Source: a virus
DNA length: 64,000 bases
Direction: 5' to 3' (one strand)
IMG/VR virus record: IMGVR_UViG_3300007511_000019
Below the pieces are notes generated by a model, which saw only the letters and a program-made list of their open reading frames with translations, did no database searches and was not told the origin of the DNA. The translations under genes were made by a program, and so were the position numbers. Position 1 is the stretch's first letter; each line of letters begins with the position of its first letter. Positions 21-21,927 of this stretch are shown here, one piece after another.

Positions 21-488
21 TTGCTAGACAAGGTTACGGCCAGCAACGTGCACTGGACGGCATACGTTATGCCCCGCAATGCCTGGGAAGGTATTAAGGC
101 GATTCTATACGAGTACGAGCGGAACTTCCTCGACGGGCGACACTATTCCAAGCGACCCCATGAGCACATCCGAACCTTCATGCGAGGATTGGTGCAGAAC
201 GCCGTGGCTCCGCGTGGTCCCCGACCCTTTACGGCTGGCACTTGGTGCGGTCTAGGGGCGGAAATGCTTCAACGAGGCAGCAAATGGCCGAGCGGGCAAG
301 ACGCCTGTACGGCCCTTGCCTGCTTCAACAAAGGATTATGCAAAGTGCATACGGTGGTCAACCGCGTGCAATACACTGGTCGCCATGGAATCCACGGCAC
401 TGACCAGAATTGGAAGGCATGGGGCTACGACGATGTCAAGCTTGACGTCTTCCCCGACGATACTGACCGCAAGGAATTTACGGCATGA
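21..488 (+). CDS. hypothetical protein, possibly truncated at the 5' end by the window edge
   Basis: The ORF is open from the window start with a + strand codon pattern consistent with its neighbours. No recognisable motifs were found. Confidence 0.3.
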   Translation: MLDKVTASNVHWTAYVMPRNAWEGIKAILYEYERNFLDGRHYSKRPHEHIRTFMRGLVQNAVAPRGPRPFTAGTWCGLGAEMLQRGSKWPSGQDACTALACFNKGLCKVHTVVNRVQYTGRHGIHGTDQNWKAWGYDDVKLDVFPDDTDRKEFTA

Positions 489-1525
489 CGACCAGAGCAT
501 TATTGACAGGTGTCGGCGGATTCATCGGGTCGCACACCGCCCAGTGGATTTTGGAACATACCGACTGGGACCTGGTCGGAATCGATAGCTGGCAACTCCG
601 ACATCGAAGCAGCCCGTCGCGACTGCAGGCCGTTCAAAAAAACGTAACACCAGAGCAATGGGATCGTCTCAAGCTAATGCAATGGGATTTATCCCACGAA
701 TTCACAACCCCATTCCGTAACGAACTATTTGACGCCGGACCGATTGACTACTGGATTAACATGGCCAGCGATAGCCATGTTGCTCGCTCTATTGACCGCC
801 CAGGGGCTTGCTGGCTGAACAACGTACACCTGGTCTACAACATGTTGGAACTGGCTCGCGTTGGCAAGCCGCGAGTTTTTATACAGGTTAGCACTGACGA
901 GGTTTACGGCGACTCCGGCTGGAGTGGGCCTGGTCACGCAGAGTGGTCTTCAATGCTGCCTAGCAACCCTTACGCAGCAAGCAAGGCAGCTCAAGAGGCT
1001 CTTGCCACATCTTACTGGCGAACGTACAACGTTCCCGTGGTAATCACCAATACCATGAACGCAGTAGGTGAGTGGCAAGATCCAGAGAAATTCTTGCCAA
1101 TGGTTATCAACAGGCTTACCAACGACAAACCAATCGTGCTGCACGGTGAGTCGGATAACAAACTGGCTAGGCGAGTTTGGCTCGACGCAAAAAACATGGC
1201 GGCGGCACTAGTCTATATCTGTAAACAGGGCCCACCGACTGCTTTCCGGCACCCAGAAGACCGCCCCGATCGATTTCACATAATCGGAGAGACTGAGCTT
1301 AATGTAGGCGAGCTTGTGCACAGAGTGGCGGGCAAGCTAGGTGTGGTCGCCAAAACACGACTGGTACACGGCGACACTGTTCGACCCGGATACGATCGCC
1401 GATACGCACTGCAAGACAACTTATTGCGAGCGAGCGGGTTTAACTACCCGTTCGAACTAGACACAACACTAGACCGTATCATCGAGTGGGTACGGGCGAA
1501 TCCTAACTGGATTTATGAGGACTGA
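485..1525 (+). CDS. NAD-dependent epimerase/dehydratase (NDP-hexose 4,6-dehydratase-like SDR)
   Basis: The N-terminal Rossmann motif is TGVGGFIGSH. A YxxxK-like catalytic region (YAASKAAQE) is present. Length and layout match dTDP-glucose 4,6-dehydratase / UDP-sugar epimerase family enzymes. Confidence 0.75.
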   Translation: MTTRALLTGVGGFIGSHTAQWILEHTDWDLVGIDSWQLRHRSSPSRLQAVQKNVTPEQWDRLKLMQWDLSHEFTTPFRNELFDAGPIDYWINMASDSHVARSIDRPGACWLNNVHLVYNMLELARVGKPRVFIQVSTDEVYGDSGWSGPGHAEWSSMLPSNPYAASKAAQEALATSYWRTYNVPVVITNTMNAVGEWQDPEKFLPMVINRLTNDKPIVLHGESDNKLARRVWLDAKNMAAALVYICKQGPPTAFRHPEDRPDRFHIIGETELNVGELVHRVAGKLGVVAKTRLVHGDTVRPGYDRRYALQDNLLRASGFNYPFELDTTLDRIIEWVRANPNWIYED

Positions 1526-1527
1526 TT

Positions 1528-2154
1528 ATGAGCAACCCCTATGTAGTGGTTGAAGAGTTTGAGCGAGAGGTGGCCAAGTACTGCGGTGCCCCTTATGCGG
1601 TGGCAGTCGATAGTTGCACCCACGCCCTCTTTCTCTGCTGCAAACACGAACACGTAGACAAACAACCTTACATCAAAATTCCGAAGCGGACCTATGTGTC
1701 TGTACCTTGCGAGATCATTCATGCAGGCGGCCGCGTCCGCTTCGCCGACTGGACCTGGTCTGGTGAATACCAGCTTGGTGACACCTGTATTTGGGATTCG
1801 GCCAAGAGATTCACCAGCGGCATGTTCGTACCTGGTCGTATGCAATGCCTGTCCTTCCACTTCTCCAAAATCCTCAACGCCGGTCGCGGTGGTATGATTC
1901 TTCACGACGATCCGGACGCCGATCGGTGGCTCCGTGAAGCTCGCTTTTCGGGACGACATCCGGAGGTGCCACTACGAGAGGATGATATCGAAATGGTGGG
2001 CTGGCACTACACGCTCGACCCTGTCTTCGCAGCAGCAGGCCTTCTACGGCTGAGTCGTTTGCCGGATTACAATGCCGATCAACAGGAAATCTACCCAGAC
2101 CTCTCTCAATTTGCGTGCTTCCAGGGGATGACCGATGAAGTTTCAGCGAGTTAG
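1528..2154 (+). CDS. compact DegT/DnrJ/EryC1/StrS-like PLP-dependent sugar aminotransferase/dehydratase (208 aa)
   Basis: FEREVAKYCGAPYAVAVDSCTHALFL matches the N-terminal DegT block. SFHFSKIL matches the PLP-lysine block (SFHxxK). GWHYTLDPVFAAAGLLRL matches the C-terminal Y-N-L block. The protein is about 170 aa shorter than canonical members. Confidence 0.55.
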   Translation: MSNPYVVVEEFEREVAKYCGAPYAVAVDSCTHALFLCCKHEHVDKQPYIKIPKRTYVSVPCEIIHAGGRVRFADWTWSGEYQLGDTCIWDSAKRFTSGMFVPGRMQCLSFHFSKILNAGRGGMILHDDPDADRWLREARFSGRHPEVPLREDDIEMVGWHYTLDPVFAAAGLLRLSRLPDYNADQQEIYPDLSQFACFQGMTDEVSAS

Positions 2155-2692
2155 CATGGCTATGGGAATTGAGGGGCTGACAACAGTCAAAGAACTCGAA
2201 TTCCTATATGACACGATTCTAAACGAGGTTCCAATTATCGGGTTGGTGGTAGAGCTAGGAACCTTCAAAGGCCGCTCCACCGCCGCTATTTGCGGAGCTG
2301 TAGTCGATCGACCTGGTCACCTATTTGTGATCGGCATCGATCATTTCAAGATGCAGCACCACGGCAAGAATGACCTGTGGACTACCCACAACAACCTGGC
2401 GGCACTGGGGTACTTTCCCGGACTTATGCGAGCCGAATCCACCAAACCTCAGCCCTCCATCAAACAAGTCTCAGCACTGATCATCGATACCGATCACAAG
2501 GCGTCGGTCCTAAACAAAGAGCTAGATGAGTGGCTGCCTAAGATCGTCGATGGTGGTGTGATCATCTTGCATGACTACGGTAGTGCTAAATGGCCCGAGA
2601 TCACCGACGTGGTAGACCAGAGGCTAACCAACAGCTCTGACTGGGAACTTCTCGGCCTGGCCGGGATGATGGTCGCTTTTAGAAAGCTATAA
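2135..2692 (+). CDS. class I SAM-dependent methyltransferase, TylF/MycF-like (macrocin-O-methyltransferase family)
   Basis: The motif GLVVELGTFKGRST resembles the TylF-family SAM-binding glycine-rich block. Downstream acidic residues are present (IDTDH). Confidence 0.55.
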   Translation: MKFQRVSMAMGIEGLTTVKELEFLYDTILNEVPIIGLVVELGTFKGRSTAAICGAVVDRPGHLFVIGIDHFKMQHHGKNDLWTTHNNLAALGYFPGLMRAESTKPQPSIKQVSALIIDTDHKASVLNKELDEWLPKIVDGGVIILHDYGSAKWPEITDVVDQRLTNSSDWELLGLAGMMVAFRKL

Positions 2693-2693
2693 C

Positions 2694-3545
2694 ATGACCG
2701 ACTACCGTTTGCCCGAGGGCAACGCTGAGTTCTGGGAACAACGTATCCAGAAACATGCCAACTCTTCCGACTCTTCCTGGGCTGACATTTTTGCCGTAGA
2801 GAAAGAGCGGGAGTCGTTGATCAGATGGTTGACCCCTTGGCTAACCCCCTACCCGATCACACTCGAGCCTACGCGGGCGTCTGTGATCCGACAAATCGAC
2901 TCATTTCTAGACGCTGGCTGCAACAACGGGCACTCTACTGCGGTTTACCGCAAGAATTTTCCCGAAATTGATTTTTACGGCTGTGATCTAAACCAGCAAG
3001 CGATCGATATAGCCTCAGCCGATTGCCCCAACTACTTCCAGCACGACGTTTGCGAACCCTTTGATCGGCAATGGGACGCCGTGTATACGTCTCGCGTTCT
3101 CTGTAACCTAGGCACTCGAGCCAGACAACATCAGGCGATCAAGAACCTAGCCGATGCAAGCCGCAAGCAGCTGATATTGCAGGAGCCTATTGGCGAGGGG
3201 TTCCGTACGCTGAATGCATTTCGAGTTGAGGTCGGGCTACCTGCGTTACAGATGCCGGAGCAAAATCTCTATCTTAATGGCGAGTTGACAACAAAGTGGC
3301 TACATGACCTAGGCTTTCGCCTGCTTGCTAGGCCATACGACAACCACAGCACCTACTTCGCTATCACCCGCGTTCTCAAGGACAAGTTGAACGTACCTGT
3401 TGCTGGGCAGGCATACACTTCTCAAATCAATAAGCTCGCCGCGTTACTGCCCAGCGTTGGCCAGTTTAGTCCTCACCGGTTTATGGTGTTTTACAATGAC
3501 CGCGAAACTGACGATGGGGTTGCTGACACACCGTCGGCCCAATAA
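2694..3545 (+). CDS. class I SAM-dependent methyltransferase
   Basis: Motif I is LDAGCNNGHS, post-I is YGCDLN, and motif II is DAVYTSRVL. Confidence 0.6.
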   Translation: MTDYRLPEGNAEFWEQRIQKHANSSDSSWADIFAVEKERESLIRWLTPWLTPYPITLEPTRASVIRQIDSFLDAGCNNGHSTAVYRKNFPEIDFYGCDLNQQAIDIASADCPNYFQHDVCEPFDRQWDAVYTSRVLCNLGTRARQHQAIKNLADASRKQLILQEPIGEGFRTLNAFRVEVGLPALQMPEQNLYLNGELTTKWLHDLGFRLLARPYDNHSTYFAITRVLKDKLNVPVAGQAYTSQINKLAALLPSVGQFSPHRFMVFYNDRETDDGVADTPSAQ

Positions 3546-4161
3546 CGTACGACGCGTTGTGAACAGTGTAGCAGCCCAAAGCTGTTCACCGGCTATCTGG
3601 ATGTGGAACAACTCTCCTGACAAGCTTCCTAGCGACCTTGTTGCTAGGTGCGATACGATTATTCGTAGCAGCCGCAATCTGCGGTGCGGAGCTTGGGCCA
3701 GCATGATGGCTCTTTGTGACACCGAGTTCGTTGGCAAAATTGACGACGACCTATCGCTGGCCGATCCGGCAGTCTTGCAGGATTGTTTGGGCTTCTTGGC
3801 CAAGCAGGACGACGATGTCATTATCGGGTCTCACGGGATTGTTCTCGAACCCGACAAGACCTACCGAGAGAGCCCCGGCGTCAACCTACCTAAGGTCGAC
3901 TCGCCGGTGGACATAGTCAAAGGCAGATTTTGGATAGCCCGTAGATCCGCCTTACTCAAAGCACCATTCGGGGCGATTGCCCACGATGGCGACGTGAGCT
4001 GGCCCGGCTTCTTGGCCAACGGAAGAAAGTGTTTTCACTGCGTTCCGGGCATGCTTCACGGTCGCTTTCACAATTTACCCGAAGGAAAGGAAGCGGTGTC
4101 GAGCGGACAGGGGCATTACGAGCGGCGAGAAGTTATTCGTCGTCAATGGTTTCCTTTCTAG
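3497..4161 (+). CDS. glycosyltransferase family 2-like (start chosen at the internal ATG; the tracker ORF begins at 3400)
   Basis: LTMGLLTHRRPNNVRRVVNSVAAQS resembles the GT2 N-terminal block. There is a DXD motif (KIDDDLSL). The 3400 start would overlap the upstream methyltransferase by 145 nt. Confidence 0.45.
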
Positions 4162-4170
4162 GGCACTACG

Positions 4171-4449
4171 ATGACAGATTACGATGCACAGTTAGGGCGG
4201 CACAAGCTCGCCACCCTGAAAGCACAGGATCGAATAAAGCGGCGTTGCCAAGCAATGCATGCAACCATGCAGTCGATCATTGACAATCTTGTAGACGGCT
4301 CTGATACTCGCGAAATACTATACAGTTCCCTGCGAAAGATCCAGGAGTCTGCCGATATGCTTTACGAAGAAGCTTGCTACTACCATACGCCTCGCCTTGA
4401 GTTGCGAGTGGCCAAACTCGAAACCATTATCGACGGACTGATCCAATGA
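4171..4449 (+). CDS. hypothetical protein
   Basis: The ORF is 92 aa and is coupled to the next gene by an ATGA overlap at 4446. Confidence 0.4.
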   Translation: MTDYDAQLGRHKLATLKAQDRIKRRCQAMHATMQSIIDNLVDGSDTREILYSSLRKIQESADMLYEEACYYHTPRLELRVAKLETIIDGLIQ

Positions 4450-4943
4450 ACGCTTTCACTCTTATTCTGTTGTTCGGAGCCAGTGGTCACGGCATGCCTT
4501 CGTTGATCATCCACGATCACTTCGATCGATTGGAGATCAACCATGTGTATGACGATGCTGGCCGTTGGCAGCTGACCCAGTTGCTGTGCTGTGACTTCAA
4601 AGAGATCTACCTGGACGCGAAGCAGCGGGAATACCTGGACGGCCCGCTTTGGTATCAGAAAAAGAATGGCCAGTTACCGCGAAGATATGTGGTACAGCAC
4701 TGGCATATGATCAGGGTCGACAAACCGGCTCTGTATCCGCACAAAGCCAAATCTGGGCTGTACACGATGATTTATCACGACAACAGCGGCGTGTTACGGA
4801 AGGTCACTGCACCAGTGTACGAAGAGACCCACACTGCTTTCGACCCCGAAGTCTGGGAACGTAGGATTTGGAGCAAGGATTCGAAACGTAGGGGCCTATC
4901 TGACGTGATTACTAAAGTAGCCCGCACGGCTACTTCCAACTGA
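4446..4943 (+). CDS. hypothetical protein
   Basis: The ORF is 165 aa and is ATGA-coupled to the preceding gene. Confidence 0.4.
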   Translation: MNAFTLILLFGASGHGMPSLIIHDHFDRLEINHVYDDAGRWQLTQLLCCDFKEIYLDAKQREYLDGPLWYQKKNGQLPRRYVVQHWHMIRVDKPALYPHKAKSGLYTMIYHDNSGVLRKVTAPVYEETHTAFDPEVWERRIWSKDSKRRGLSDVITKVARTATSN

Positions 4944-4982
4944 CCAAGGGCGGTCTTCGACTAACGAGTTCTAGGAATTCAA

Positions 4983-5459
4983 ATGTACGAGACCCAAACA
5001 AACGTGTCTTCTGGCGTGAACGTGTATCTGTCCGGACCTATTACCGGTGAGGGCTACGACACGGTCACTGACTGGCGAAAAGAAACATCTGACGTTCTAG
5101 CGGGCTACGGAATTACAGCCCTGTCGCCGTTACGACACAAACACTACTTGGCAGGCGAGACTGAGATTGCTCCCTCGTACGAGGAGCACACGATGTCTAA
5201 GCAAAAGTCCATCACTAACCGCGATCGGTGGGATGTGATGCGGTCCGACGTAGTGTTTGTTAACTTGCTCAACACCAATCGCATCTCAATCGGCACGGTG
5301 ATGGAAATCGCCTGGGCTGATGCTTTCCGTAAACCAATCGTCTTGGTGATGGAGCAGGACGGGATGCATTCTCACCCACTCCTCGAGGAGGTCTGTGCGT
5401 TTCATATCGAGACGCTAGAAGAAGGTATCGAGGTTTTGAAGGGCCTTCTGGTCCCGTAA
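4983..5459 (+). CDS. nucleoside 2-deoxyribosyltransferase-like / SLOG-fold protein
   Basis: The N-terminal VYLSGPITG motif is present. The C-terminal block DVMRSDVVFVNL...ISIGTVMEIAWADAFRKPIVLV matches the NDT/LOG-like signature (D..D....SD....DSGT.fElG.A.A.gKPv). Confidence 0.5.
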   Translation: MYETQTNVSSGVNVYLSGPITGEGYDTVTDWRKETSDVLAGYGITALSPLRHKHYLAGETEIAPSYEEHTMSKQKSITNRDRWDVMRSDVVFVNLLNTNRISIGTVMEIAWADAFRKPIVLVMEQDGMHSHPLLEEVCAFHIETLEEGIEVLKGLLVP

Positions 5460-5467
5460 AGGACAAC

Positions 5468-6292
5468 ATGTTTGAACGATTTACCGACAGAGCACACCAT
5501 AGCTTCACCGAAGCCAAGCGTTTTGCCAAACGCCTGCGGCACGAGTACATCGGCGTAGAGCATGTCGTGTACGGTCTGCTCAAAAGCGGTGGCATTGCCC
5601 AGACCGTGCTCAACAACGCTAATGTCTTTGCCGGAGATGTCGAACGATTTATGGCTGCTCGGCTTGGCGACGGTCCTAGCTATATAGTCTATGTGGACAG
5701 CCTACCGAGGACTCCTCGCTGTAAACGTGTGACGGACAAGGCGATAACCTACTCAAGTGACGTGGATGGTCTGTACGTAGGAACTGAGCATCTGCTACTG
5801 GCTATACTGGACGAAGAAGACAGTATGTGGCTTGATCTGCTTAGCAAAGTAGGCTCACGGACTGTTGAGCAGCTTCGCATGGACGTTAGACTGTCGCCCA
5901 GTTCAGCGAAGCCGGTCACCTACATGTTTGGCGTATTTGACCCATTTCACGTGGGTCATTACATGCAGTTGGAGCGTGCTGCCGAGTTGGGCAGCAGCCT
6001 GATAGTCGGCGTCCAGTCTGACGCTGCCGTCGAGAACGAGCATGGAAACCCGCCGCTCTTGACACTTTCATCGCGTAGGCGGCTGCTTAACGCGTTGCCT
6101 GTTGTAGATGCAACGGTAACCTATACCGAACCCGACCAGTCCAGTGTACTTAGCGTTTTAGCTCCGAGCATCTTTGTCTGCGACCCGCTTTACGATCAGG
6201 AGCAAACTCTGGCATACTGCAAAGACAATAACATCCGCGTTGAGCGAATGTTGTCGGAATCGGTGCCATGTAATCCTCGTTCGATGTCGTAA
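5468..6292 (+). CDS. fusion of a Clp N-terminal repeat domain and a cytidylyltransferase-like nucleotidyltransferase
   Basis: Residues 1-140 contain two Clp_N repeats (YIGVEHVVYGLLKSGGIAQTVL and YVGTEHLLLAILDEEDSMWLDLL). The C-terminal half has GVFDPFHVGHYMQLERAAELGSSLIVGV, matching the (H/T)xGH motif of glycerol-3-phosphate cytidylyltransferase / RfaE domain II enzymes. Confidence 0.65.
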   Translation: MFERFTDRAHHSFTEAKRFAKRLRHEYIGVEHVVYGLLKSGGIAQTVLNNANVFAGDVERFMAARLGDGPSYIVYVDSLPRTPRCKRVTDKAITYSSDVDGLYVGTEHLLLAILDEEDSMWLDLLSKVGSRTVEQLRMDVRLSPSSAKPVTYMFGVFDPFHVGHYMQLERAAELGSSLIVGVQSDAAVENEHGNPPLLTLSSRRRLLNALPVVDATVTYTEPDQSSVLSVLAPSIFVCDPLYDQEQTLAYCKDNNIRVERMLSESVPCNPRSMS

Positions 6293-8137: not shown

Positions 8138-8968
8138 ATGACTGATCCCAGTTTTGCGGTATTTGACGAAGACCGATTTCCTCCCACGAGTAACCTCGCC
8201 GAAGCATATCAGCAAGAGGTTACCTACGGATACGAGGTAATGAAGGAACGATCGGTAGTGATCGCTGGTCTCGCTCGTAACATCGAAAAGGCAGTCCCGA
8301 TAACAACCTCCCGCATTGAGCGGCTAGGAGAGCTGTTTCAGGACTACCGTGTGGTGCTTTACGAAAACGACTCTCGCGACCGTACGCCTGAATTGTTACA
8401 GGCTTGGGCTGATTCCAACTCCAGCGTAGACCTTACGTCTGAACGCCGGGGCGATCCTGTGAATCCGCAAATCCGGTGTCTAAACCGGGCAGCCCGTATG
8501 GCTCACTACCGAAATCAGTGCCGACTCAAAATTGCGGAGAAGTACCCTGACGTAGATAACGTCATCGTACTTGATACCGACCTGACTGGCGGGTGGAGCT
8601 ACGACGGCATCGCCCACACCTTTTCCAAGACCGAGGCATGGGACTTCGTTGGAAGCAACGGGATCATGTTCAAACACTTTAACGGCCAGAACAACTACCC
8701 AGTCTACTTCGACGTCTGGGCATTTCGCTGGCAAGGCACCTATCAACCTTGCTTTGCACCAAAGATCAATCCCCGACGCTGGAACCGGGGCGAAGCTTTA
8801 GTTCCGCTCTACTCCTGCTTCGGCGGGTTAGGGGTTTATCGTGTAGAGGCAATGTTGCGGTGCTCGTACGACGGTTCGGACTGCGAGCATGTCCCATTTC
8901 ACCGCAAAATGCGGGAAGCCGGAATGGGCCGTATTTTCATGAACCCGAGCCAAATCGTACTCTATTGA
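8138..8968 (+). CDS. putative glycosyltransferase (GT-A-like)
   Basis: The protein is 276 aa with a DXD-like motif (VIVLDTDLTG). Its layout loosely resembles polysaccharide glycosyl/mannosyl transferases. Support is weak. Confidence 0.3.
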   Translation: MTDPSFAVFDEDRFPPTSNLAEAYQQEVTYGYEVMKERSVVIAGLARNIEKAVPITTSRIERLGELFQDYRVVLYENDSRDRTPELLQAWADSNSSVDLTSERRGDPVNPQIRCLNRAARMAHYRNQCRLKIAEKYPDVDNVIVLDTDLTGGWSYDGIAHTFSKTEAWDFVGSNGIMFKHFNGQNNYPVYFDVWAFRWQGTYQPCFAPKINPRRWNRGEALVPLYSCFGGLGVYRVEAMLRCSYDGSDCEHVPFHRKMREAGMGRIFMNPSQIVLY

Positions 8969-10307: not shown

Positions 10308-10600
10308 TGTTCATTCTGATTCGCTTGCTGATTGTTTTGGGGCTAGTCGCGGCCATCGTGTGGTTAGCCACTAAGCTGACGCATAGCCCATGGTTTGGAC
10401 GCCTTGTTGACGTATTTCTGGGGCACAAGCCCACTGACAGTGAATTGACTGGCAACATCGACGAAGCTCGAGCCGACCTTGCGAACAGGGTCGAGGCTAA
10501 CCGTCTTGAAGCCGAACGTCTTGACGCATCGCGTAGACGTCTGGAGGCACACGGCCTTGCAGACAAACAAGACCATGCAAATCCTGGCAAACCCAGGTAG
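10307..10600 (+). CDS. small membrane protein with one TM helix and a coiled-coil tail (start at the internal ATG)
   Basis: MFILIRLLIVLGLVAAIVWLA forms a TM segment, followed by a charged helical tail. The gene sits immediately upstream of the SPFH gene. Confidence 0.45.
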   Translation: MFILIRLLIVLGLVAAIVWLATKLTHSPWFGRLVDVFLGHKPTDSELTGNIDEARADLANRVEANRLEAERLDASRRRLEAHGLADKQDHANPGKPR

Positions 10601-10613
10601 GAGCAATTCACCC

Positions 10614-11960
10614 ATGGAACGTAAGCACTTTGCCTACGCAGCCGCCGCCGTTCTCGGCGTCGTCGCACTGATTGTTTTGTTTGGAAATATGGGGTACAAC
10701 CGCGACGACCAGTGGCAAATCCACCAGTCTGTTACGGGCAAGATCACGGTGATTGACCGTGGCGGTTACTACCTCAACATGTTCGGTACCGTAACTGACT
10801 ACCCGCGTTACCGTGACTCGTTCTACTCGGCCCACCACAAGGAAGGCGGTGAAGAGGACGATTCGATTCGGTGCACCTTTAACGACGGCGGCACCGCTAA
10901 GGTGTCGGTGTACGTTAGGTTCTCCACTCCCCCAGAGGAGGACCAACGTCGAGCATTCCACCGTGTGTATTCTGCGAACATTGACAACACCTCGCAGGCG
11001 GTACGGGCTCACCTTGTTAACTGCGTTAAAGCGGCGGCACCGCTAATGTCTGCTAGCGAGAACCAGGCGTCACGCAAAGCCGAGTTTGCTCAAGTCATTC
11101 AGAACATGATGCAAGACGGCCTATACGTGATGCGACAAACAAGAGTTACTCTCGAAGATCAGGCGTTGATCGAAGTAGAGGCCAACGCGGACGGTAAGGC
11201 TCCCGTTCTTCGCGAGAAGCCTACCGAGGTTATGGCGACAGAGATCGTGCGAGATACCGAGACAGGTAAGCCGCTGATCGCTGAAGCATCGCCACTGACC
11301 AAGTACGGTATCGGGGTTGAGCAATTCTCGGTTACCGATATTGACTATGATCCAGAGACCCTCAAACAGTTCGCTGCGAAGAAAGAATCGTTCTTGCTGG
11401 CGGAACAGGCTAAGGCCCAACGACAGCAGTTCGTACAAGAGAAGCTGAAGATCATCGCTGAAGGTGAATCTGAAGTTGCCCGTATCGAGCAAGAGGGAAA
11501 CAAAGAGAAGATGGCCGCGACAGTATCCGCCGAGAAAGAGGCGGCTGTGGCAATCATCAACAAAGATAAAGCCGTGACCGAGGCTACACAAAAGGTCGAG
11601 GTGGCCCAGCAAGAAAAGCTGGAAGCCGACACCCGATTTGAGATTGCCGAAGTCCAGGTCAAGATCGCGGAAGAGGATAAGAAGGCCGAGATTGCCGTCG
11701 CCGAAGCCAAACAAAAGGCTCTGGAGATCGGCGGTGCTCTGTCGGAAGAAGAACGCGTTCTTGCAGAGATCGCTGCCGAACGCGATGCTAAGGTCGCCAC
11801 AGCCCTTGCTGGGTTAAAGGTACCAGGCGTCGTCATCGTCGGCGGTAAAGGTAGTGACTCAGGTGGTGGCGGAGAAAATCTCCAAAGCAATCTGATCAAC
11901 CTTACACTGTTGCGAGCCCTGGGGATCATTCCCAAAGACGCGACGAAGCCCGTCGAGTAA
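10614..11960 (+). CDS. SPFH/band-7 (flotillin/YqiK-like) membrane protein (start at ATG 10614 with RBS AGGTAGGAG)
   Basis: An N-terminal TM segment (AAAAVLGVVALIVLF) is followed by an SPFH-like globular region. The long C-terminal E/A/K/Q-rich coiled coil (AEQAKAQRQQFVQEKLKIIAEGESEVARIEQEG...) is typical of flotillin/HflKC-type proteins. Confidence 0.65.
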   Translation: MERKHFAYAAAAVLGVVALIVLFGNMGYNRDDQWQIHQSVTGKITVIDRGGYYLNMFGTVTDYPRYRDSFYSAHHKEGGEEDDSIRCTFNDGGTAKVSVYVRFSTPPEEDQRRAFHRVYSANIDNTSQAVRAHLVNCVKAAAPLMSASENQASRKAEFAQVIQNMMQDGLYVMRQTRVTLEDQALIEVEANADGKAPVLREKPTEVMATEIVRDTETGKPLIAEASPLTKYGIGVEQFSVTDIDYDPETLKQFAAKKESFLLAEQAKAQRQQFVQEKLKIIAEGESEVARIEQEGNKEKMAATVSAEKEAAVAIINKDKAVTEATQKVEVAQQEKLEADTRFEIAEVQVKIAEEDKKAEIAVAEAKQKALEIGGALSEEERVLAEIAAERDAKVATALAGLKVPGVVIVGGKGSDSGGGGENLQSNLINLTLLRALGIIPKDATKPVE

Positions 11961-11992
11961 ACGTGAGTTGCCAACGCAACTGCTGAAGTGAA

Positions 11993-12028
11993 GCACCGGG
12001 ACCCAAAGATCCCGGTGCTTTTGCTTTT
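11993..12028 (+). terminator. rho-independent terminator after the SPFH gene
   Basis: The stem is GCACCGGGA / TCCCGGTGC with an 8-nt loop, followed by TTTTGCTTTT. Confidence 0.7.
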
Positions 12029-12051
12029 AACAACCATGGCTAGGAGTACGG

Positions 12052-12453
12052 ATGCCAACAACCAACCAACTGGTTCGCAAGAACCGCAGAAAGCCAAGGA
12101 ACAAGTCCAAGCACCGGCTGATGCAGGAAAACCCGCAGCGGCGAGGAACAGTGCTAAAGGCTTGGGTGATGTTGCCGCGTAAGCCCAACTCAGCTAACCG
12201 CAAGGTGTGTCGGGTCCGGTTTGCCGATGGCAACGAGGCGACGTGCCACATTCCGGGCGAAGGCCACAACATCGTGGAGCACAACACCGTGCTCGTGCGA
12301 GGCGGCGGCCCACCTGATCTGTCCGGCGTTAAGTACCGTGTTGTTCGCGGTACGCTTGACTGTATCGGCGTTACCGAAGGTGCTAACAAGCAGCGGCGAA
12401 ACCAAGGCCGCAGCAAGTACGGTTCGCCAAAACCGTCCAAAGCAAAGAAGTAG
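12052..12453 (+). CDS. rpsL: ribosomal protein uS12 (S12) homolog, bacterial type
   Basis: The match to bacterial S12 is near full length: [14 protein letters not shown]..., [51 protein letters not shown], and SKYG. An RBS (AGGAG) lies 9 nt upstream. Confidence 0.85.
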
Positions 12454-12610
12454 ACGATCGTGGTGTTCTGGCGAGTGATTTTTCATGGAGGAGCCCTCAT
12501 CGCTTTGGGACGGAGTCCCAACAAGGATCAGGGATTATCCAGTGGCGAGGGCAGTCGCCGCCGAATTGGAGTTGGCTCTTGCCAGAACACCTTTTTTACA
12601 TGGAGGGCAC

Positions 12611-13147
12611 ATGACCACCATACCTGAGTTGAAACCTTGCGATTGCGGCGTCAAGCCTGTGGTGTTTGGCGAAGCCCTGATGCTGAGTATCCGCTGCCCG
12701 ACCTGCAGTGGCCAATTTATTATGGGAGTAGATGTTCCAGATTTACGTGATCGCTGGAATAACGGCGAACGCGGGGTTGTGGCTAACTACAACCGCCCGG
12801 CCCGGCCTAACGTGGTCGATCTCGACGAAACATCGGATTACCCGCCCCTCAAGCCTCTACCCAAGCTGGGCATAGTTTGCACTATCGACCGAGTTAAGCC
12901 ACCCACCTTCTGGGATCGGCTGTGTGCCTCATTTTCCCAGGGGGGAAGATGTTACCTCGAGTTCGCTGCTTTGCATCCTTCCGCGTTTGTAATCGAGTGG
13001 GAACCAAAGTTTCGGGTATTATTCGGGCATCGAACTTACCTGGACGACCAAGGCCAACCATTCGCTACGAGAAAAGCTGCTGAGCAGTACGAAGCCGTCC
13101 TGATTAGGCGGCGTTGCTTCGAGGTGCAGGATAGCCGCCGCTCCTAA
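12611..13147 (+). CDS. Lar-family-like zinc-ribbon protein (start at ATG 12611 with RBS GGAGGG)
   Basis: ELKPCDCGVKP...IRCPTCSGQF...DLRDRWNNG resembles the Lar restriction-alleviation family signature (LKPCPFCG...C..CG...W). Confidence 0.4.
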   Translation: MTTIPELKPCDCGVKPVVFGEALMLSIRCPTCSGQFIMGVDVPDLRDRWNNGERGVVANYNRPARPNVVDLDETSDYPPLKPLPKLGIVCTIDRVKPPTFWDRLCASFSQGGRCYLEFAALHPSAFVIEWEPKFRVLFGHRTYLDDQGQPFATRKAAEQYEAVLIRRRCFEVQDSRRS

Positions 13148-13285: not shown

Positions 13286-14020
13286 ATGTCCAACATCCCG
13301 TTAGTGACTGCTGTAATGGTCACCGGGAAGGATCCTGAAAGAGCACCGTATGCTCTGGCGGCAGTACAGAGCTTCTTGTCGCAAACCTGGCCCAATAAGG
13401 AATTGGTCATCATCAATGACGGCAAAGTGCCGTTGTTACCGTTCCTGTCTACCAGTTTACCCCCTGGTACCGATATTAGAGAATCGACATTTCCGTCAGG
13501 AGCTTACACACTAGGCGATCTTCGTAACAAAGGCTTAGAGAAAGCTGACGGCGAATGGGTTATACAGTGGGACGATGACGACTGGTACCATCCTTGGCGA
13601 ATCGCTATGCAGATGGACGAGGCCGTTGACGACCACGCCGTTTTGCTAAAGTGTCAAGTCCGATACAGTTTTCCTAACGATTCTGCGAAAGCTTTTCGGT
13701 GGCCTTACAAACCCAACCCGGCCATTCCCGGCACCGTTCTGCACCCCAACAAACCAGGCCTGGCCTATCGTTCTGAGCGTAAAGCTGAGGACGACCACTT
13801 TTTGCAAGACCACTTCAAGGACAAAATGATCGTTCTTGATAATGCAGCCAACCCGCACCTCTACTTGCGGTTTTTCACAGGACACAACACGTGGGACCAT
13901 TTCCACGTCATGGGTCTGCACGCTAACCCGGACCATAAAGGTAGGTGGACCTTACCAGAAGAATCTTCTGATTACCTTCGTACGGTCATTGACACCCACT
14001 ACAAATTTGCGGTTAGCTAA
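13286..14020 (+). CDS. glycosyltransferase family 2
   Basis: VTAVMVTGKDPERAPYALAAVQSFLSQTWPNKELVIINDG matches the GT2 N-terminal block, and there is a DXD motif (QWDDDDWYH). Confidence 0.65.
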   Translation: MSNIPLVTAVMVTGKDPERAPYALAAVQSFLSQTWPNKELVIINDGKVPLLPFLSTSLPPGTDIRESTFPSGAYTLGDLRNKGLEKADGEWVIQWDDDDWYHPWRIAMQMDEAVDDHAVLLKCQVRYSFPNDSAKAFRWPYKPNPAIPGTVLHPNKPGLAYRSERKAEDDHFLQDHFKDKMIVLDNAANPHLYLRFFTGHNTWDHFHVMGLHANPDHKGRWTLPEESSDYLRTVIDTHYKFAVS

Positions 14021-14953
14021 ATGCCAGAATCCATCCAACAATATCTGATCACTGGAGCCAACGGCCAGCTAGGGATGGAACTGGTGCGGCAGCTGGGCGA
14101 GGAGTCTGTAATAGCCAAGCCCCGCGAGACCTTCAACGTATCCGACATGACGAAGGTCAAGGAACTGATTCCTTTGCTGCGACCAGCCGCTGTTATCCAT
14201 ACCGCTGCTATGACGGATTGGGTTACTGCCGAACACAAGCGGAATGATTGCTGGCAGACTAACGTTCAGGGGACGGACAATCTCGTTAAGGTATGTGCCT
14301 TGCACGGGATTCCTTTTGTACATATCAGTTGTGACAGTGTTTTCGGCTCCAACCGCGACCCTAGGCCGCGTACGGAGACCGATCCGGTGGTGCCTTGCCA
14401 CCAACTGGCTATTACGAAAGCATGTGCTGAGCACAGCGTGCTCCGACTTGGGCAATGTGTTTGCCCCGAGTTTTGGCAAAAAGGCTTCCGGTACTGGGTT
14501 ATTCGCACAGGACTTCTGTACGAACGCCCATGGCGACAAAACCAGAACCTCGTCAGCCGGATACTTCGTCAAGCGGATAACCGCCGTGGCGAAGAGGTGT
14601 CCCTTGCTTCCGACATGATCTTCACTCCGACATACGCTCCGCACCTGGCCAAGGCTCTGGTCTGGTTGGTGCGGCACTACCGTGAAATGCCGTCGGGTGT
14701 ATACCACGTTGGCAATCTAGGTCACTGTTCTGCCTACCAGTTTGGGCAAGAAATCTCGTCAAATTCACGACGTCCGCTAAAGATCCGGTCAACTACACGC
14801 GAACAGATGTCGCAGGCCTTCGGTGGCTGGGACGCTAAGCTCCTGCCATACCATACGGCTCTCGACTGTAGCAAATTCGCTGATGTAGTACCTATTCCTC
14901 TGCCGGATTGGCGGGAAGGTGTCGAGCAATTTTCGCTTGACTACGAGAGTTAA
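14021..14953 (+). CDS. RmlD-like NAD(P)H-dependent 4-ketoreductase (dTDP-4-dehydrorhamnose reductase family)
   Basis: The N-terminal LITGANGQLGMEL motif, followed by VIHTAAMTDWVTAEHKRNDCWQTNVQGTDNLVKVCALHGIPFVHISCDSVFG, matches the RmlD substrate-binding-domain family. Confidence 0.65.
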   Translation: MPESIQQYLITGANGQLGMELVRQLGEESVIAKPRETFNVSDMTKVKELIPLLRPAAVIHTAAMTDWVTAEHKRNDCWQTNVQGTDNLVKVCALHGIPFVHISCDSVFGSNRDPRPRTETDPVVPCHQLAITKACAEHSVLRLGQCVCPEFWQKGFRYWVIRTGLLYERPWRQNQNLVSRILRQADNRRGEEVSLASDMIFTPTYAPHLAKALVWLVRHYREMPSGVYHVGNLGHCSAYQFGQEISSNSRRPLKIRSTTREQMSQAFGGWDAKLLPYHTALDCSKFADVVPIPLPDWREGVEQFSLDYES

Positions 14954-15214
14954 GTCCATATTGGTGCAGCACATGCGATCGTGGTAAACTATTGGGCTGT
15001 TCAACAGGCCGAAGGCACCGGCTGGTTTGGAGACGCCTCTGCTCCGGAAAAGGAAACGAGCAAGCGTCCGGCAACCGTACTTGGTAACAACCGTGGTACG
15101 GGAGGTGGAGTGGTGGGTGTGCCTATTAGACGCCACAGTAACCGGTCAGAAAAGCCGGTAGGTCCTCGGGAGGGGAATCCGGGGTGTTGAGCACTCGTAA
15201 TGGAAACTAACTGA

Positions 15215-15664
15215 ATGAATCATCACGATGAACATCCAGAAGGGGCAGCCATGGACGGTAAAATCATTGAAGTCTTGGACCGGCTCGCTGATCGGCTACA
15301 CGATCAGGAACAACCGTCCGGCCTGTTGTCGATCGAAAAGATCGTCGCGGCGGTCATCATGTTACTTGTCACCGGTGTATGTCTTTGGGTTGGATCATCC
15401 TTGACCACGATGACTCAAAAGGTGATCGAGCTTCAGGCCAACGTTTCACACCAGAGCCAGACAGTCGCCGAACTCAAGGCGGAGGTTCGCGACTTACGTA
15501 CTGGGGCACTCAGTACCAGCACGAATAACACACAAAACATTCAACTCATTCTCGAGCGAATGAAAGCCGACGACGCCCGAGAGATTCGCGACGACGAAAC
15601 CATCGCAGAGATCCGTCGACAGATCCAGGCATTACAGGAACAAGTTAGAGGTAACAAACCGTGA
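15215..15664 (+). CDS. membrane protein with a coiled-coil region
   Basis: A central TM helix (VAAVIMLLVTGVCLWVGSSL) is flanked by charged helices. Confidence 0.4.
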   Translation: MNHHDEHPEGAAMDGKIIEVLDRLADRLHDQEQPSGLLSIEKIVAAVIMLLVTGVCLWVGSSLTTMTQKVIELQANVSHQSQTVAELKAEVRDLRTGALSTSTNNTQNIQLILERMKADDAREIRDDETIAEIRRQIQALQEQVRGNKP

Positions 15665-16176
15665 GCCTGTATCGTCCCAGTACAGTAACGACGCCAGGCC
15701 AGGCCCTCTACGAGCTGTCTCACGACTTCGTGAAGGTCTCCAGCAAACCATGGCTGTCGTATGGGCTGGCAGGCAAACTCTATATCTCCAACTCCGGCTG
15801 GGGCCTGCTTAGCGTCCCAAACGCCCTTGTTCACGGTGCTTTCGACGCCCTGGAAGAACCCGGCGTAGAGCTGCCGCGACAGGACAGCGGGACATTTAAT
15901 GCCCATATTTCTGTCTTTCGCAAGGACGAAATCGATAAAATCGGGGGATCTGGCAAAATCAGGGAACGCGGTCACACTTTTCGGTACACCCTCGGACCGG
16001 TAAAATGTGTGAAGCCCTATGGTTGGGACGAAATGTCCAAAGTGTGGATGATCGAGGTCCACTCACCCGAACTACAGAACCTGCGGAAAAGCTACGGGCT
16101 ATCTGCGTTGCCCAAGGACAATAGGTTCAAGTTCCATATCACCATAGGAGTCCGACGCAAGAACGCATTCAAGTAA
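15661..16176 (+). CDS. 2H phosphoesterase superfamily protein (LigT / cyclic phosphodiesterase-like)
   Basis: Two H-x-T/S-x motifs are present (AHISVF and FHITIG), spaced about 90 aa apart as in LigT/CPDase. The GTG start overlaps the upstream stop (GTGA). Confidence 0.55.
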   Translation: MSLYRPSTVTTPGQALYELSHDFVKVSSKPWLSYGLAGKLYISNSGWGLLSVPNALVHGAFDALEEPGVELPRQDSGTFNAHISVFRKDEIDKIGGSGKIRERGHTFRYTLGPVKCVKPYGWDEMSKVWMIEVHSPELQNLRKSYGLSALPKDNRFKFHITIGVRRKNAFK

Positions 16177-16198
16177 CGTCTACCCTAACGGAGTAGTA

Positions 16199-16651
16199 AT
16201 GGGCGACTACACTGTGCGACTTGAATACAGGCCAGGGGACAAGAACGACCATCTCGCCGAGGTCATCCGTCGCCTGGACGAAAAGTGCTTTCCGGACAAG
16301 GACGTACATCGAGAGCCGTTTGGTACAACCTGGTGGTGGATCGCCAGGGATAAGACTAACGGATCACCTGTTGGCTATGCTGGCCTCAGGTATCTTACAA
16401 AACCCGATGACTGTGCCTACTTCTGCCGAGCTGGGGTGATTGCCTCGCATCGTGGACAGGGGTTGCAAAAACGCCTCATACGGGCCAGAGTGGCGTATGC
16501 AAGGCGGCAAGGTTGGTCGGGTGTTTTGACGTACACTTCCGCCGACAACTATCCGTCGGCAAATTCTCTCGTCAGCCAAGGCTTTCGGCTTTACAGCCCA
16601 AGCTTCGCATGGTCTGGTAGAGAGATGTTGTATTTTCGACTATTGTTCTAG
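16199..16651 (+). CDS. GNAT family N-acetyltransferase
   Basis: Motif A is RGQGLQKRLI, and the GNAT-like beta/alpha layout is recognisable. Confidence 0.65.
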   Translation: MGDYTVRLEYRPGDKNDHLAEVIRRLDEKCFPDKDVHREPFGTTWWWIARDKTNGSPVGYAGLRYLTKPDDCAYFCRAGVIASHRGQGLQKRLIRARVAYARRQGWSGVLTYTSADNYPSANSLVSQGFRLYSPSFAWSGREMLYFRLLF

Positions 16652-18729: not shown

Positions 18730-20509
18730 ATGCCCAATATCTTGCTGCCTGAACTCAGCACTGACGCCGAAGAGATGTCTATGCTCGGATTCCCGATCGG
18801 GAATTTGGAGAAGGTATCATCACCCCTAACAGGGGGTTTGTGGCCAGAACTTCTTTCGTATCTTCCCGTTCGGGAAAATCGCCTCCATGGGGAAATTCAC
18901 GAAAAGAGGGGTGAAGACGCGAAAGGCATTCCAGACCGAAAGTACTATGGCGACCTATCTAGAGTTTCTCCGCAGTTACTGGACTTCGTTATCCAACGGC
19001 ATCTTGCCGAGAGAGCTGGCCCTCACTTTGATTTCCGATTCGGAGACCCCAAAGGGCTCTTCTCCTGGGCAACCAGAAAACCGATGCCCGGCATTGGCGG
19101 ACGAACCGCCCTATTCCAGCAGCCCATGCACTCCTACAAGTACAAAGATTGGGAGGGCACAATTCCTAGCGGACGCTATGGGGCTGGACGGGTTAAGAAA
19201 CAAGAGGATGGCAAACTTCTCATTACCAAAGCCAGTCCGGAATCTATCCACTTCACCATGGCCCACAAGAAGCACCCGCAACGCTTCGTGATGATCAAAC
19301 CGAAGGGCTGGAAAGATAAAGACTGGTTGCTTATCAACAAGACCCCGACTGAGCAATTGCCGTACGAGAAAGTACGGTACAAAAAGATTCCAGCGGAGCA
19401 GGTCGACAAGTACATCGGCCAAATGCAAAAAGGCGATACTCTGGAGGCAAAGGTTGACGGGGCCTCCTCGCTGATTAAACTAATGAAAGAGGGCGTCGAG
19501 GTGATGTCCTACCGTACGTCCAAGGAAACGGGCCGACCGATACTTCACACAGAAAGATTGCTTCATGGTCTCCCCGCTTACAACATCCCAGACGACCTGG
19601 TTGGCACGGTACTTAAAGGCGAACTCTACGGAGTGCGACCTGGAGGATCCGGAGATGGTGATGGCTCCGCTGACAAGGGAGACCCTCTACGCGGCCATGT
19701 TGCTGATGAACCTCAGCTGGCGGAAGGGAGCTTTGAACCTGACGGAGGGCGAGAAAGAGATACTCGAGTTTCAGAGAGAGCAGACCAGGAGGATGTTCCC
19801 GGAACTGTTAGGCCCCAAGACGACGGACTCGGAGAATATCTTCAAGAGGCTCTTTCCGCCGGTACCGGTAGACCAACTCAGCGAGAGCGAGTACTCCGCC
19901 CTCAAGAACTTGGAGGACTGCTCAACTCCTCCGTCGCCAAATCAATCCAAGACCAGCGAGAGCGACAAGTAAAACTCAGAAATGCCGTTTACGATATCCA
20001 ACAGCTAGGCAACAAACCAATCGACTGGCATGTGACTCCCCGGCTCGAGCGTAGGGATATGATTCGAAAAGTTCTTGAGCACCTACCGCCCGAGACGTTT
20101 CACATCTCAGAAGCCGCAGAGACGCCCGAAGCCGCCCAGAGACTCTGGCAACAAATACAGTCTGGTGAGCACCCGATTACTCGAGAGGGTGTAGTCATGC
20201 ATCCGCTACACGGTCCCCCCACGAAAGGAAAAATTTTAGAAGACGTAGACGTGTATTATCGCCAAGCATTTCCGGGCAAAGGTAAACACGAAGGATCGGG
20301 TGCTGGCGGCTTCGAATACTCACTCACACCTGACGGGCCTATAATTGGTAAGGTAGGAACAGGTTTCACGGACGAGTTACGCAGGTCCCTTTTCGAGAAC
20401 GATCAAGACTATGCCGGAAGGATTGCACGAATCCAATCGCAAGAACAGCTTCCTAGCGGAGCTTATCGAGCACCGAGCTTTCTGGCTTTTCACGAGGATC
20501 AACCTTATG
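18730..20509 (+). CDS. LigD-type 3'-phosphoesterase domain fused to an ATP-dependent polynucleotide ligase (no in-frame stop, so the 3' end is uncertain; the tracker ORF runs to 21927)
   Basis: PE domain: GPHFDFRFGDPKGLFSWATRKPMPG...DWEGTIPSGRYGAGRV matches the LigD phosphoesterase signature. Ligase motifs: I is KVDGAS, III is LKGELYG, IIIa is AVYDI, IV is EGVVMH, plus an OB fold (GKVGTGFTDE...RAPSFLAFHED). A low-complexity insert of about 110 aa lies between motifs III and IIIa. Confidence 0.6.
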
Positions 20510-21046
20510 CAACAACGAAACAGTCTAGGCAGGTTTCTGCAAGGACACAAATCCAGAACGACTCACGGACAAAGTGGAACGAAAACATACAAGGTGTGGG
20601 CGGGGATGAAACGCCGCTGCCTGGACCCAAAACGGCACAATTACAAACACTACGGAGGACGAGGCATAAAGATATGTGCAAGGTGGCGGGACTCCTTCGA
20701 GAACTTTCTGGAAGACATGGGAACGTGCCCAGACGGTTATTCGCTGGAGAGGGAGAACAACGACAAAGACTACTGTCCCACGAATTGCACTTGGATACCT
20801 CTCGAGAAACAGGCAGCAAACACTCGGAGCAACGTGTGCTTGACTTTTCGCGGCGAAACCAAGCATCTGACACAATGGGCGAGAGAGTCGGGAATCAGGC
20901 AGCAGACATTGACCAGGCGTCTTCAGCGAGGTTGGTCCGTGCAGCGTGCACTAACCGAGAAGCCAGTAGTAGGCAAAAATCAATTCTCGTCCAGCCAGAC
21001 CTCGGACTCACGTCTGAAAAACTCGCTGAACTCGGGATCGGAATAG
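20507..21046 (+). mobile_element. free-standing HNH/AP2-like homing-endonuclease gene with a C-terminal helix-turn-helix (+1 frame relative to the ligase ORF)
   Basis: YKVWAGMKRRCLDPKRHNYKHYGGRGIKICARWRDSFENFLEDMG...GYSLERENNDKDYCPTNCTWIPLEKQAAN is typical of phage HNH homing endonucleases, and LTQWARESGIRQQTLTRRLQRGWSVQRAL is an HTH tail. The ATG at 20507 coincides with the expected C-terminus of the ligase OB domain. Confidence 0.6.
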
Positions 21047-21049
21047 ATC

Positions 21050-21927
21050 CCGACGAGCACACAGCCCTGGAAAAAGAAGCCTCACTTGCTAGACTTCTGA
21101 CACTACCTGGCGTCAAGCACCTACTTCGCTGGCAGTCAAAGCTTGGTCGGAAGGCTAACGACTACTTGTGGAACAAACTGCTAACCGCAAATCGCCGAAC
21201 CGCGTTGGGCACCGCAGGCGTCGTAGGCGGTGCCGGTTACGGCGGCTACCGGATGGGCCAAGGCGACTGGCAAACTCCAGGCGACATTCTACACGACCCG
21301 ATCATCCAAAAGCCGCTGGAATGGTCTACAGTTATCCCGGAGAAATATAACATCCCATTGTGGACAGCAGCAGGTATTGCTGGTGGCCGTAGTGTGGGCC
21401 GTCACGCGGCCCAAGCCGCCGTAGGCAGTGCCAACGCGTTGCGGCGGCTAGTTACGATGCAGCCCTTATCGCAAGCGTTGTCTGGTCAAATCGGTAGTAC
21501 CCTTGGTGTTGCTGGGCCTATCTTAGGCGGTGCCAAAGGCGGCGTCGGAACCTACTACACTCACCGGGCAGTAGAGAAAGCCAGGGAAGCTGCTGAGCAG
21601 CCAACAGTACCTGAAGTCAAGCACAGCACAGATTCGCACTACCTGCGAGCCTTCTCCCAAGTAAACCCTGCACACCTTTACCGAGGCGACCAGTCTGCTC
21701 TGCGTAACGCTAGCAACTACATCAACGCCTTGTTAATACAGGGTCGGCAAAACGTCGCCAAAGCCTATAATACTGATAGCCTCAACCTGGCCTTGGCTCC
21801 GATGGGGCAACGTTGGCAACGAGCCTTGGCCAGTCTTGAGGGTTACGATCCCATCATGTCCAATCCCCTTGATCGGGTGTTGCACATGATGCCAGCAACC
21901 CCGCAGCTGAGTCGTCCGTACGTATGA
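21050..21927 (+). CDS. Gly/Ala-rich putative membrane/virion protein encoded by the 3' part of the 18730-21927 ORF (start undefined)
   Basis: Segments such as TAGVVGGAGYGG, AAGIAGGRSVG and GVAGPILGGAKGG resemble the downstream gene 21953-22792. There is no ATG near the 5' end, so an alternative start or continuation of an upstream exon is possible. Confidence 0.3.

Follow-up and report, generated by a model that had tools for sequence, protein, structure and literature searches.

The window considered here is a 64,000-nucleotide stretch of viral DNA (IMG/VR record IMGVR_UViG_3300007511_000019), and the gene in question encodes the small-subunit ribosomal protein uS12. The product is a genuine, full-length, bacterial-type uS12 that resides in a phage as a paralogue of the cellular protein; it keeps the residues of the codon-monitoring loop and is changed at adjacent positions where classical streptomycin-resistance mutations fall, and comparable genes recur in other phages. 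The immediate locus comprises the following:

10479-11960, plus strand: gene of the SPFH/Band-7 family (Pfam PF01145), upstream of uS12; gene callers start it at about 10614 (448 aa).
11990-12031, plus strand: terminator-like hairpin (11990-12021) with a 12-bp stem, then a tail rich in T, in the gap that separates uS12 from the SPFH gene; a pattern match from a consensus scan.
12042-12046, plus strand: Shine-Dalgarno-like AGGAG, 5 nt before the ATG of uS12, read from the sequence.
12052-12453, plus strand: uS12 (rpsL-like) coding sequence, 133 aa plus stop codon, with an ATG start; from the list of open reading frames (ORFs) and the sequence.
12485-13147, plus strand: hypothetical gene with CxC...CxxC motifs, downstream of uS12; no family match, and not rpsG.

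The hairpin would isolate uS12 from the upstream transcription unit or attenuate read-through from it; a consensus scan found no sigma-70-like promoter upstream of the gene. An antisense ORF that overlaps uS12 (12027-12440, 137 aa) was set aside as lacking support.

A preliminary description of this DNA, made by eye from the letters, had called the product a full-length bacterial-type S12 homolog, and both profile and fold comparisons bear this out. The NCBIfam equivalog model TIGR00981 (rpsL_bact) scores 146.1 bits on the protein, above its curated cutoff of 112.95; Pfam PF00164 gives E=2.9e-23 (82.1 bits, cutoff 22.3); models for archaeal and eukaryotic S12 reach only about 36 bits, far under their cutoffs of 140-196 bits. 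A phmmer search of the PDB returned uS12 chains only (best E=5e-38). An AlphaFold2 model derived from 141 aligned sequences reaches a mean predicted local distance difference test (pLDDT) score of 77.9, with 87-93 in the core; it predicts an oligonucleotide/oligosaccharide-binding (OB) fold, a beta-barrel from which extended tails run at both termini. When this model was compared with the PDB by Foldseek, the top 50 matches were all uS12 (template-modelling (TM) scores 0.64-0.78, probability 1.00). The protein is strongly basic.

The residue assignments rest on MAFFT and HMMER alignments to the E. coli, Thermus and Mycobacterium proteins and to uS12 chains from the PDB, and follow E. coli mature numbering. 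Three replacements first read by eye, K42R (codon CGT, 12178-12180), K87P (CCT, 12313-12315) and P90S (TCC, 12322-12324), are confirmed; so is the conservation of the PNSA loop and of the GEGHN and VRG.LDC.GV blocks. They fall in two loops:

12178-12198, plus strand: decoding loop 1, R42-K43-P44-N45-S46-A47-N48; K42R and L48N changed, K43 and PNSA kept, by the alignments.
12307-12327, plus strand: loop 2, G85-P86-P87-D88-L89-S90-G91, which faces helix 44 (h44) of 16S rRNA and the streptomycin pocket; R85G, V86P, K87P and P90S changed, D88, L89 and G91 kept.

Loop 1 thus reads PRKPNSA, in which K43-P44-N45-S46-A47 are all the family consensus; loop 2 departs from its canonical form (R85-V86-K/R87-D88-L89-P90-G91) and reads G-P-P-D-L-S-G. 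Further changes are L56F, Y65H, Q74V, R93K, H95R and K119P. Set beside bacterial RpsL, the protein has the same length and keeps the N-terminal MPTxNQLVRK, K43-PNSA, R49, GEGHN..EH (with E75-H76), D88-L89, G91, YxxVRG (Y94, R98-G99) and RSKYG. Of 23 alignment columns without variation across 121 uS12 sequences it retains 22, L23M being the one departure. It differs in being phage-encoded and in carrying K42R, R85G, V86P, K87P, P90S, L48N, L56F, Y65H, Q74V and K119P at positions with 80-100% conservation among the sequences compared. D88 is the aspartate that is beta-methylthiolated in bacterial uS12. In terms of charge, the positive residue is kept at 42 (as R) and at 93 (as K), and lost at 85 and 87; the proline at 90 gives way to a small residue.

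The window copy is one of many. A single-sequence scan of IMG/VR with its uS12 returned no relatives; an alignment-seeded scan returned 19 loci. Eleven of these, on contigs of 11-442 kb, carry uS12 without S7 or EF-G (L013-L019, L021, L024, L028 and L029). Five are bacterial str-operon fragments that carry S7 or EF-G (L020, L022, L023, L025 and L027), and L026 is probably another, with an S12 near-identical to that of L025 and a contig that ends shortly after the S12 gene; two truncated matches (L030 and L031) were left out of the classification. Six metagenome copies also stand outside the str operon, amid unannotated or phage-type genes. IMG/VR and the metagenomes together hold, besides that of the window, at least 16 uS12 genes that lie in phage-like surroundings and not in a str operon; these sequences were already public, without annotation. 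Four examples, L011, L013, L016 and L017, have arginine or cysteine in place of K42, proline in place of K87, and G, S or R at 90, and lie outside the str operon amid genes that have no family match or serve phage replication or structure; they differ in being 50-58% identical to the window protein, in sharing no neighbours with it, and in having other residues at 85, 86 and 90. (L013 is UViG_3300032954_000003; L016, 3300045141_000199; L017, 3300031251_000003; L011, a contig of Logan SRR29078207.)

Comparison of 17 phage-context with 32 cellular uS12 sequences separates a frozen part of the protein from a mobile one. Invariant in all 17 phage-context copies are Q5, L6, R11, P27, P41, K43, P44, N45, S46, A47, R49, G59, G68, N72, E75, H76, G83, D88, L89, G91, Y94, R98, G99, D102, R109, R113, S114 and G117. 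Positions conserved in at least 90% of cellular sequences and variable in the phage copies are T40, K42, L48, P90 and R93; residues 85-87 and several beta-strand residues vary among the phage copies as well. K87P occurs in 9 of the 17, a change at K42 in 6 and a change at P90 in 6; fully canonical loops are kept in 6. Among 238 distinct sequences the changes at 42 and 90 occur together (2x2 counts 10, 4, 1 and 223; Fisher p=8e-14, relatedness ignored), and six proteins combine a change at K42, K87P and a change at P90, all six in phage-like contexts (the window, L011/P0058, L013, L016, L017/P0145 and P0055). For background, 150 diverse representatives of 50%-identity clusters have a residue other than K at 42 in one case, and other than P at 90 in none of about 145 readable loops; that search reduced the uS12 family to a small number of clusters whose representatives were odd, and supplied background frequencies and no new clade members. 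The pattern suggests continuing selection on the phage protein for those traits by which uS12 takes its place in the decoding centre of the 30S subunit.

The window itself is large marine-type phage DNA. Sixty of its 70 ORFs lie on the plus strand; PHROG matches identify beta-type subunits of a multisubunit RNA polymerase (RNAP) at 25894-31548 (1885 aa) and 33032-36091 (1020 aa), in genes that bear domains for intein splicing and LAGLIDADG homing endonucleases. They also identify, at 57245-58594 (E=7e-92), a virion structural protein; marine cyanomyoviruses and Puniceispirillum phage HMO-2011 have proteins with about 36% identity to it. Most other genes have no family match, and no tRNAs were found in the 64-kb window. 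In bacteria, uS12 heads the str operon (rpsL-rpsG-fusA); the window gene is not in that position, but neighbours the SPFH gene, the hypothetical gene, a GT2 glycosyltransferase gene and an RmlD gene. A tblastn search found neither S7 (rpsG) nor EF-G (fusA) in the window; the same search finds both in the bacterial fragments of IMG/VR. The idea that the gene might be recent host DNA between host flanks therefore fails, the flanks being phage-type and rpsG and fusA absent. At least 13 contigs, drawn from assemblies of JGI, ENA and Logan, encode exactly this protein; ten that were compared have the same gene order and 100% nucleotide identity over 1.9-3.4 kb around uS12. A locus found identical on at least ten independently assembled contigs is not an assembly chimera.

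Residence in the phage has been long. A search of 5.8 billion proteins found as sole close relative a one-residue variant (N61D), everything else being at most about 60% identical. The window protein has a mean identity of 56.8% (maximum 61.8%) to cellular uS12, whereas cellular uS12 proteins of different phyla average 78.6% (minimum 63%) among themselves; it is also the most diverged of the phage set. A pattern-based scan of GTDB, in which a single genome represented each of 185,579 prokaryotic species, gave no match more than 51% identical; it returned only uS12 proteins of Patescibacteria and Gammaproteobacteria at 45-51% identity, and hence pointed to no donor or prophage. The GC content of the gene is 0.58 and that of its third codon positions (GC3) 0.69, about 2 standard deviations (SD) above the phage mean (GC3 0.59 +/- 0.04 for the other phage genes of the window). 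Its synonymous-codon preference (-1.09, against -1.17 +/- 0.06 for phage genes) fits the codons the phage prefers, and the codons for R42 (CGT) and P87 (CCT) are each at least two steps from any lysine codon. Given this divergence, the fitting codon preference and the distance from lysine codons, the gene is an old and fast-evolving phage resident and not a recent import of host DNA. The preference for phage-favoured synonymous codons is stronger than average, which would be consistent with high expression.

The three positions singled out in the preliminary description, 42, 87 and 90, are indeed classical sites of streptomycin resistance (PMC4182516, PMC3884664). In Klebsiella, K42R raises the minimum inhibitory concentration (MIC) of streptomycin above 1,024 µg/ml with hardly any loss of fitness; K42N, K42T and K87R carry a cost; P90L, P90Q, P90R and G91D lead to streptomycin dependence (PMC4182516). 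In Thermus, bulky side chains placed at P90 collide with h44 and deform the decoding site, causing dependence; small ones (G, A, C) give plain resistance; mutations at K42 suppress P90 dependence; and pre-organisation of the decoding site has been proposed as a role of uS12 (PMC3884664). Molecular dynamics places K42 in contact with C912, and R93 with C910 and U911, of helix 27 (h27), and K43 in contact with A1492; a hydrogen-bond network of D88, N45 and R49 joins the two uS12 loops (PMC4224418).

Against this background, the window protein resembles the classical rpsL alleles in several respects: it is altered at the same positions, K42R being exactly the common low-cost resistance allele; P90S belongs to the small-side-chain class reported as resistant; and the joint change at K42 and P90, here as in the wider set of sequences, mirrors the reported intragenic suppression of P90 defects by K42 mutations (PMC3884664). 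It differs in that its residues are long-standing natural states of a phage paralogue, not single-step laboratory mutations, and in that K87P, R85G and V86P are absent from the alleles in the cited rpsL literature. The preliminary description had also hinted at a restrictive, hyperaccurate phenotype. The sites named were right; hyperaccuracy does not follow from K42R, K87P and P90S, because K42R is nearly cost-free, small residues at P90 give resistance, and K87P, or K42R with P90A, can be found in cellular uS12. With the codon-monitoring loop, the inter-loop network and the charge at 42 and 93 kept, the charge at 85 and 87 lost, and a small residue at 90, we infer a working uS12 whose surface has been remodelled towards h44, h27 and the streptomycin pocket, neither crippled nor necessarily hyperaccurate.

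The most likely way to understand such a protein is that it enters the 30S subunits assembled during infection and alters the properties of their decoding site; the chances that this is correct seem about even. That is, the phage would express uS12 during infection; the protein would replace host uS12 in the 30S subunits put together in the infected cell; its codon-monitoring loop K43-PNSA and the D88/N45/R49 network that links the two loops would stay as they are; it would offer a remodelled face to h44, h27 and the streptomycin pocket, with arginine at 42, the charges at 85 and 87 gone and serine at 90; the resulting phage-type ribosomes would differ in decoding-site pre-organisation, and any ligand or factor that depends on the canonical surface of K42, K87 and P90 would probably not affect them. 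What the sequences show is the identity of the protein, its setting in a phage, the substitutions, the pattern of conservation and the recurrence in other phages; that it is expressed, enters 30S subunits and has an effect there is inferred. The strongest support for incorporation comes from the contrast between exactly the decoding residues, which stay fixed in phage copies that have diverged, and the adjacent surface, which changes coordinately. A wider claim is more tentative, and on present evidence rather doubtful: that several large-phage lineages maintain their own uS12, and that a subset has repeatedly and coordinately remodelled this surface, giving phage-specific ribosomes in which decoding is tuned to the phage, or which resist A-site-acting molecules of the host or of competitors.

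Several considerations weigh against incorporation and adaptation. In cells that carry both alleles, the streptomycin-sensitive form is dominant, which would limit any benefit from resistance. The ten compared contigs show no single-nucleotide polymorphisms (SNPs), so that they offer no variation for a ratio of nonsynonymous to synonymous polymorphism (pN/pS). No gene is conserved beside uS12 across the window and the other phage loci; apparent conserved neighbours on the opposite strand proved to be antisense ORFs overlapping uS12. Cellular uS12 is described as binding late in assembly (PMC10931766), and the exchangeable ribosomal proteins in which viruses are enriched are bS21, bL12, bL9, bL31 and bL33, with uS12 not among them (PMC6375957); since uS12 is integral, late-binding and non-exchangeable, incorporation would need new 30S assembly during infection. 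Finally, two cellular sequences have some of the same changes: P0004 (L032), followed by S7, has K87P, and P0017 (L033), followed by S7 and EF-G, has K42R, K87R, P90A and G91N. Some substitutions in the phage copies could therefore have been inherited from a donor.

Taken further, these cellular sequences lead to the supposition that the substitutions simply mirror the uS12 of a donor or host, and that the phage copy is an ordinary spare ribosomal protein with no adaptation to phage life. Arginine at 42 in about 4% of bacteria (PMC4224418) would make such a donor easier to imagine. Yet identity between the window protein and cellular uS12 nowhere exceeds about 62%, and among 238 distinct sequences K87P together with changes at both K42 and P90 was seen only in phage-like contexts, in six cases out of six. 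A midpoint-rooted neighbour-joining (NJ) tree sets the verified phage-context copies on long branches outside the cellular sequences, with the window paired with L013; as the protein is short, support values were not computed and long-branch attraction may account for part of the separation, this tree is descriptive only. Inheritance from a donor as the whole explanation is accordingly unlikely. The cellular L032 and L033 lineages are themselves likely, judged by these residues, to be intrinsically insensitive to streptomycin.

A second supposition would take uS12 off the ribosome: as an RNA chaperone it might fold phage RNAs or introns, or speed the folding of rRNA, without becoming a stable ribosomal component. 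The cellular protein aids splicing of a T4 group I intron in vitro and speeds co-transcriptional binding of uS4 (PMC10931766), and the window protein is very basic. But Rfam recognised no family, group I introns included, in the 64-kb window, where the mobile elements are inteins; and a non-specific role would not require K43-PNSA, R49, D88, L89 and G91 to be invariant in 17 diverged phage copies. This we hold to be quite unlikely.

Improbable also, in our judgement, is a decoy or inhibitor, a variant that would compete with host uS12 or titrate a factor that binds it and so stall ribosome biogenesis or translation. Loop 2 has lost two positive charges and gained two consecutive prolines, and viral bS21 in E. 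coli ribosomes lowered in-vitro translation to about 5% (PMC6375957); but the phage itself requires working ribosomes, the decoding residues are exactly preserved, and the known alleles (K42R, small residues at P90) permit growth. That the gene is a neutral passenger in decay, as its standing as the most diverged of the phage set (about 57% identity to cellular uS12) might invite one to think, is very improbable: the ORF is intact and has its Shine-Dalgarno site, retention of 22 of the 23 invariant residues would occur by chance at about 5e-5 (assuming uniform substitution and 43% divergence), codon preference suits the phage, and uS12 is retained in many distinct phage lineages. Host contamination or chimeric assembly, which does explain some S12 matches in GenBank phages and IMG/VR as bacterial str-operon fragments, has a negligible claim here, the same locus with its phage flanks having been assembled at least ten times from different samples and containing neither S7 nor EF-G.

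The protein joins a list of virus-encoded ribosomal proteins that includes bS21, bL12, bL9, bL31, bL33, HPF and others (PMC6375957). It resembles them as a host-derived, single-copy ribosomal protein gene fixed in a phage, and the conservation of its sequence points, as theirs does, to retained function; they are peripheral, loosely bound and exchangeable, whereas uS12 forms an integral part of the decoding centre. What makes it unusual is that a core decoding-centre protein is changed at sites of resistance and accuracy. The preliminary description held that uS12 had not been described in phages, and no published report came to light, although the window turned out not to have the only copy. 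A full-text literature search for S12 or uS12 with phage, jumbo-phage or virus-encoded found no report of a phage uS12. Mizuno et al. (2019) had an S12 hidden Markov model (HMM) in their search set, and uS12 is not named in the text or searchable supplements of that paper (PMC6375957); the ribosomal proteins listed by Al-Shayeb et al. (2020) are S1, S4, S21 and L7/L12, and none of the 200 supplementary files searched for that study contains 'protein S12'. Among GenBank phages, tblastn gave 15 records less than 54% identical to the window protein; these were judged to be bacterial contamination and not relatives of the phage uS12. Two are Salmonella genome records, two that are annotated label the gene rpsL, and most are unannotated.

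The implications follow from the place of uS12 in the ribosome. Mutations in it set accuracy and the response to streptomycin; with a phage copy of it, viral manipulation of translation would reach the decoding centre itself. If the wider claim above holds, this would be the first case of a virus reprogramming that centre by supplying an integral ribosomal protein. The changed window copy and the recurrence of related copies in other phage-like contigs suggest an ability of phages to modify the decoding centre of ribosomes. The diverged copies, with joint changes at K42 and P90, K87P, and an invariant codon-monitoring loop, amount to a natural mutational scan of the decoding surface. For the curation of viral contigs, uS12 is not automatically a cellular marker or a sign of contamination.

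The settings of the other copies are varied, as the neighbours of uS12 and related features show:

L024: family A DNA polymerase with an intein.
L018: SNF2 helicase and a 5'-3' exonuclease/UDG.
L028: protein matching virion-protein PHROGs.
L013 and L016: RCC1-repeat proteins.
L029: RNAP subunit 36% identical to that of the window.
P0058/L011 (metagenome): Mtd_N and RCC1.
P0020/L012 (metagenome): TROVE and helicase.
P0099/L034, P0009/L035 and P0126/L038 (metagenome): context outside the str operon.
P0055/L044 (metagenome): AAA_24.

The RCC1-repeat proteins near uS12 in L011, L013 and L016 are large, and those three copies have K42R, K87P and G or S at 90; the shared neighbours suggest that the three phages are related. 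Mtd_N-domain proteins are found in L011. The metagenome searches also returned P0002 (on a 993-bp contig) and P0122 (on a 1726-bp contig) as top-scoring matches, discarded as proteins of 195-199 aa with a tandem duplication of most of uS12; they are probably assembly artefacts, and head the match lists because both copies score.

Within the window, uS12 lies amid a cluster of sugar- or nucleotide-modifying genes (about 485-6292, 8138-8968 and 13286-16651). The cluster encodes a DegT-type aminotransferase, methyltransferases, a nucleoside 2-deoxyribosyltransferase, a protein with Clp_N and cytidylyltransferase domains, a weak match to a CAP59-like mannosyltransferase, the GT2 protein, an RmlD-like reductase, a 2H phosphoesterase and a GNAT protein; its content suggests modification of DNA, virion or host surface. 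Farther along, the first RNAP ORF (25894-31548) combines Rpb2- and Rpb1-type domains. A 1065-aa protein at 18730-21927 has LigD_N and ATP-dependent-ligase similarity; the same region is split into several shorter gene calls in the sister contigs L001, L003 and L006, the lengths of the locus being identical.

Two further observations concern the other phage contigs. A multicopy family of small proteins (110-160 aa) occurs in several of them, directly downstream of uS12 in two; members lie at 5899-6390 in L019, 5363-5740 in L038 and 3534-3881 in L011, with several copies in L014, L015 and L017. The family may be a homing-endonuclease-like mobile gene, one member having a sub-threshold HNH match. 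In L012, a TROVE (Ro60-like) and VWA protein is encoded directly upstream of uS12 (258-1796); here a gene of RNA quality control adjoins one for a ribosomal protein.

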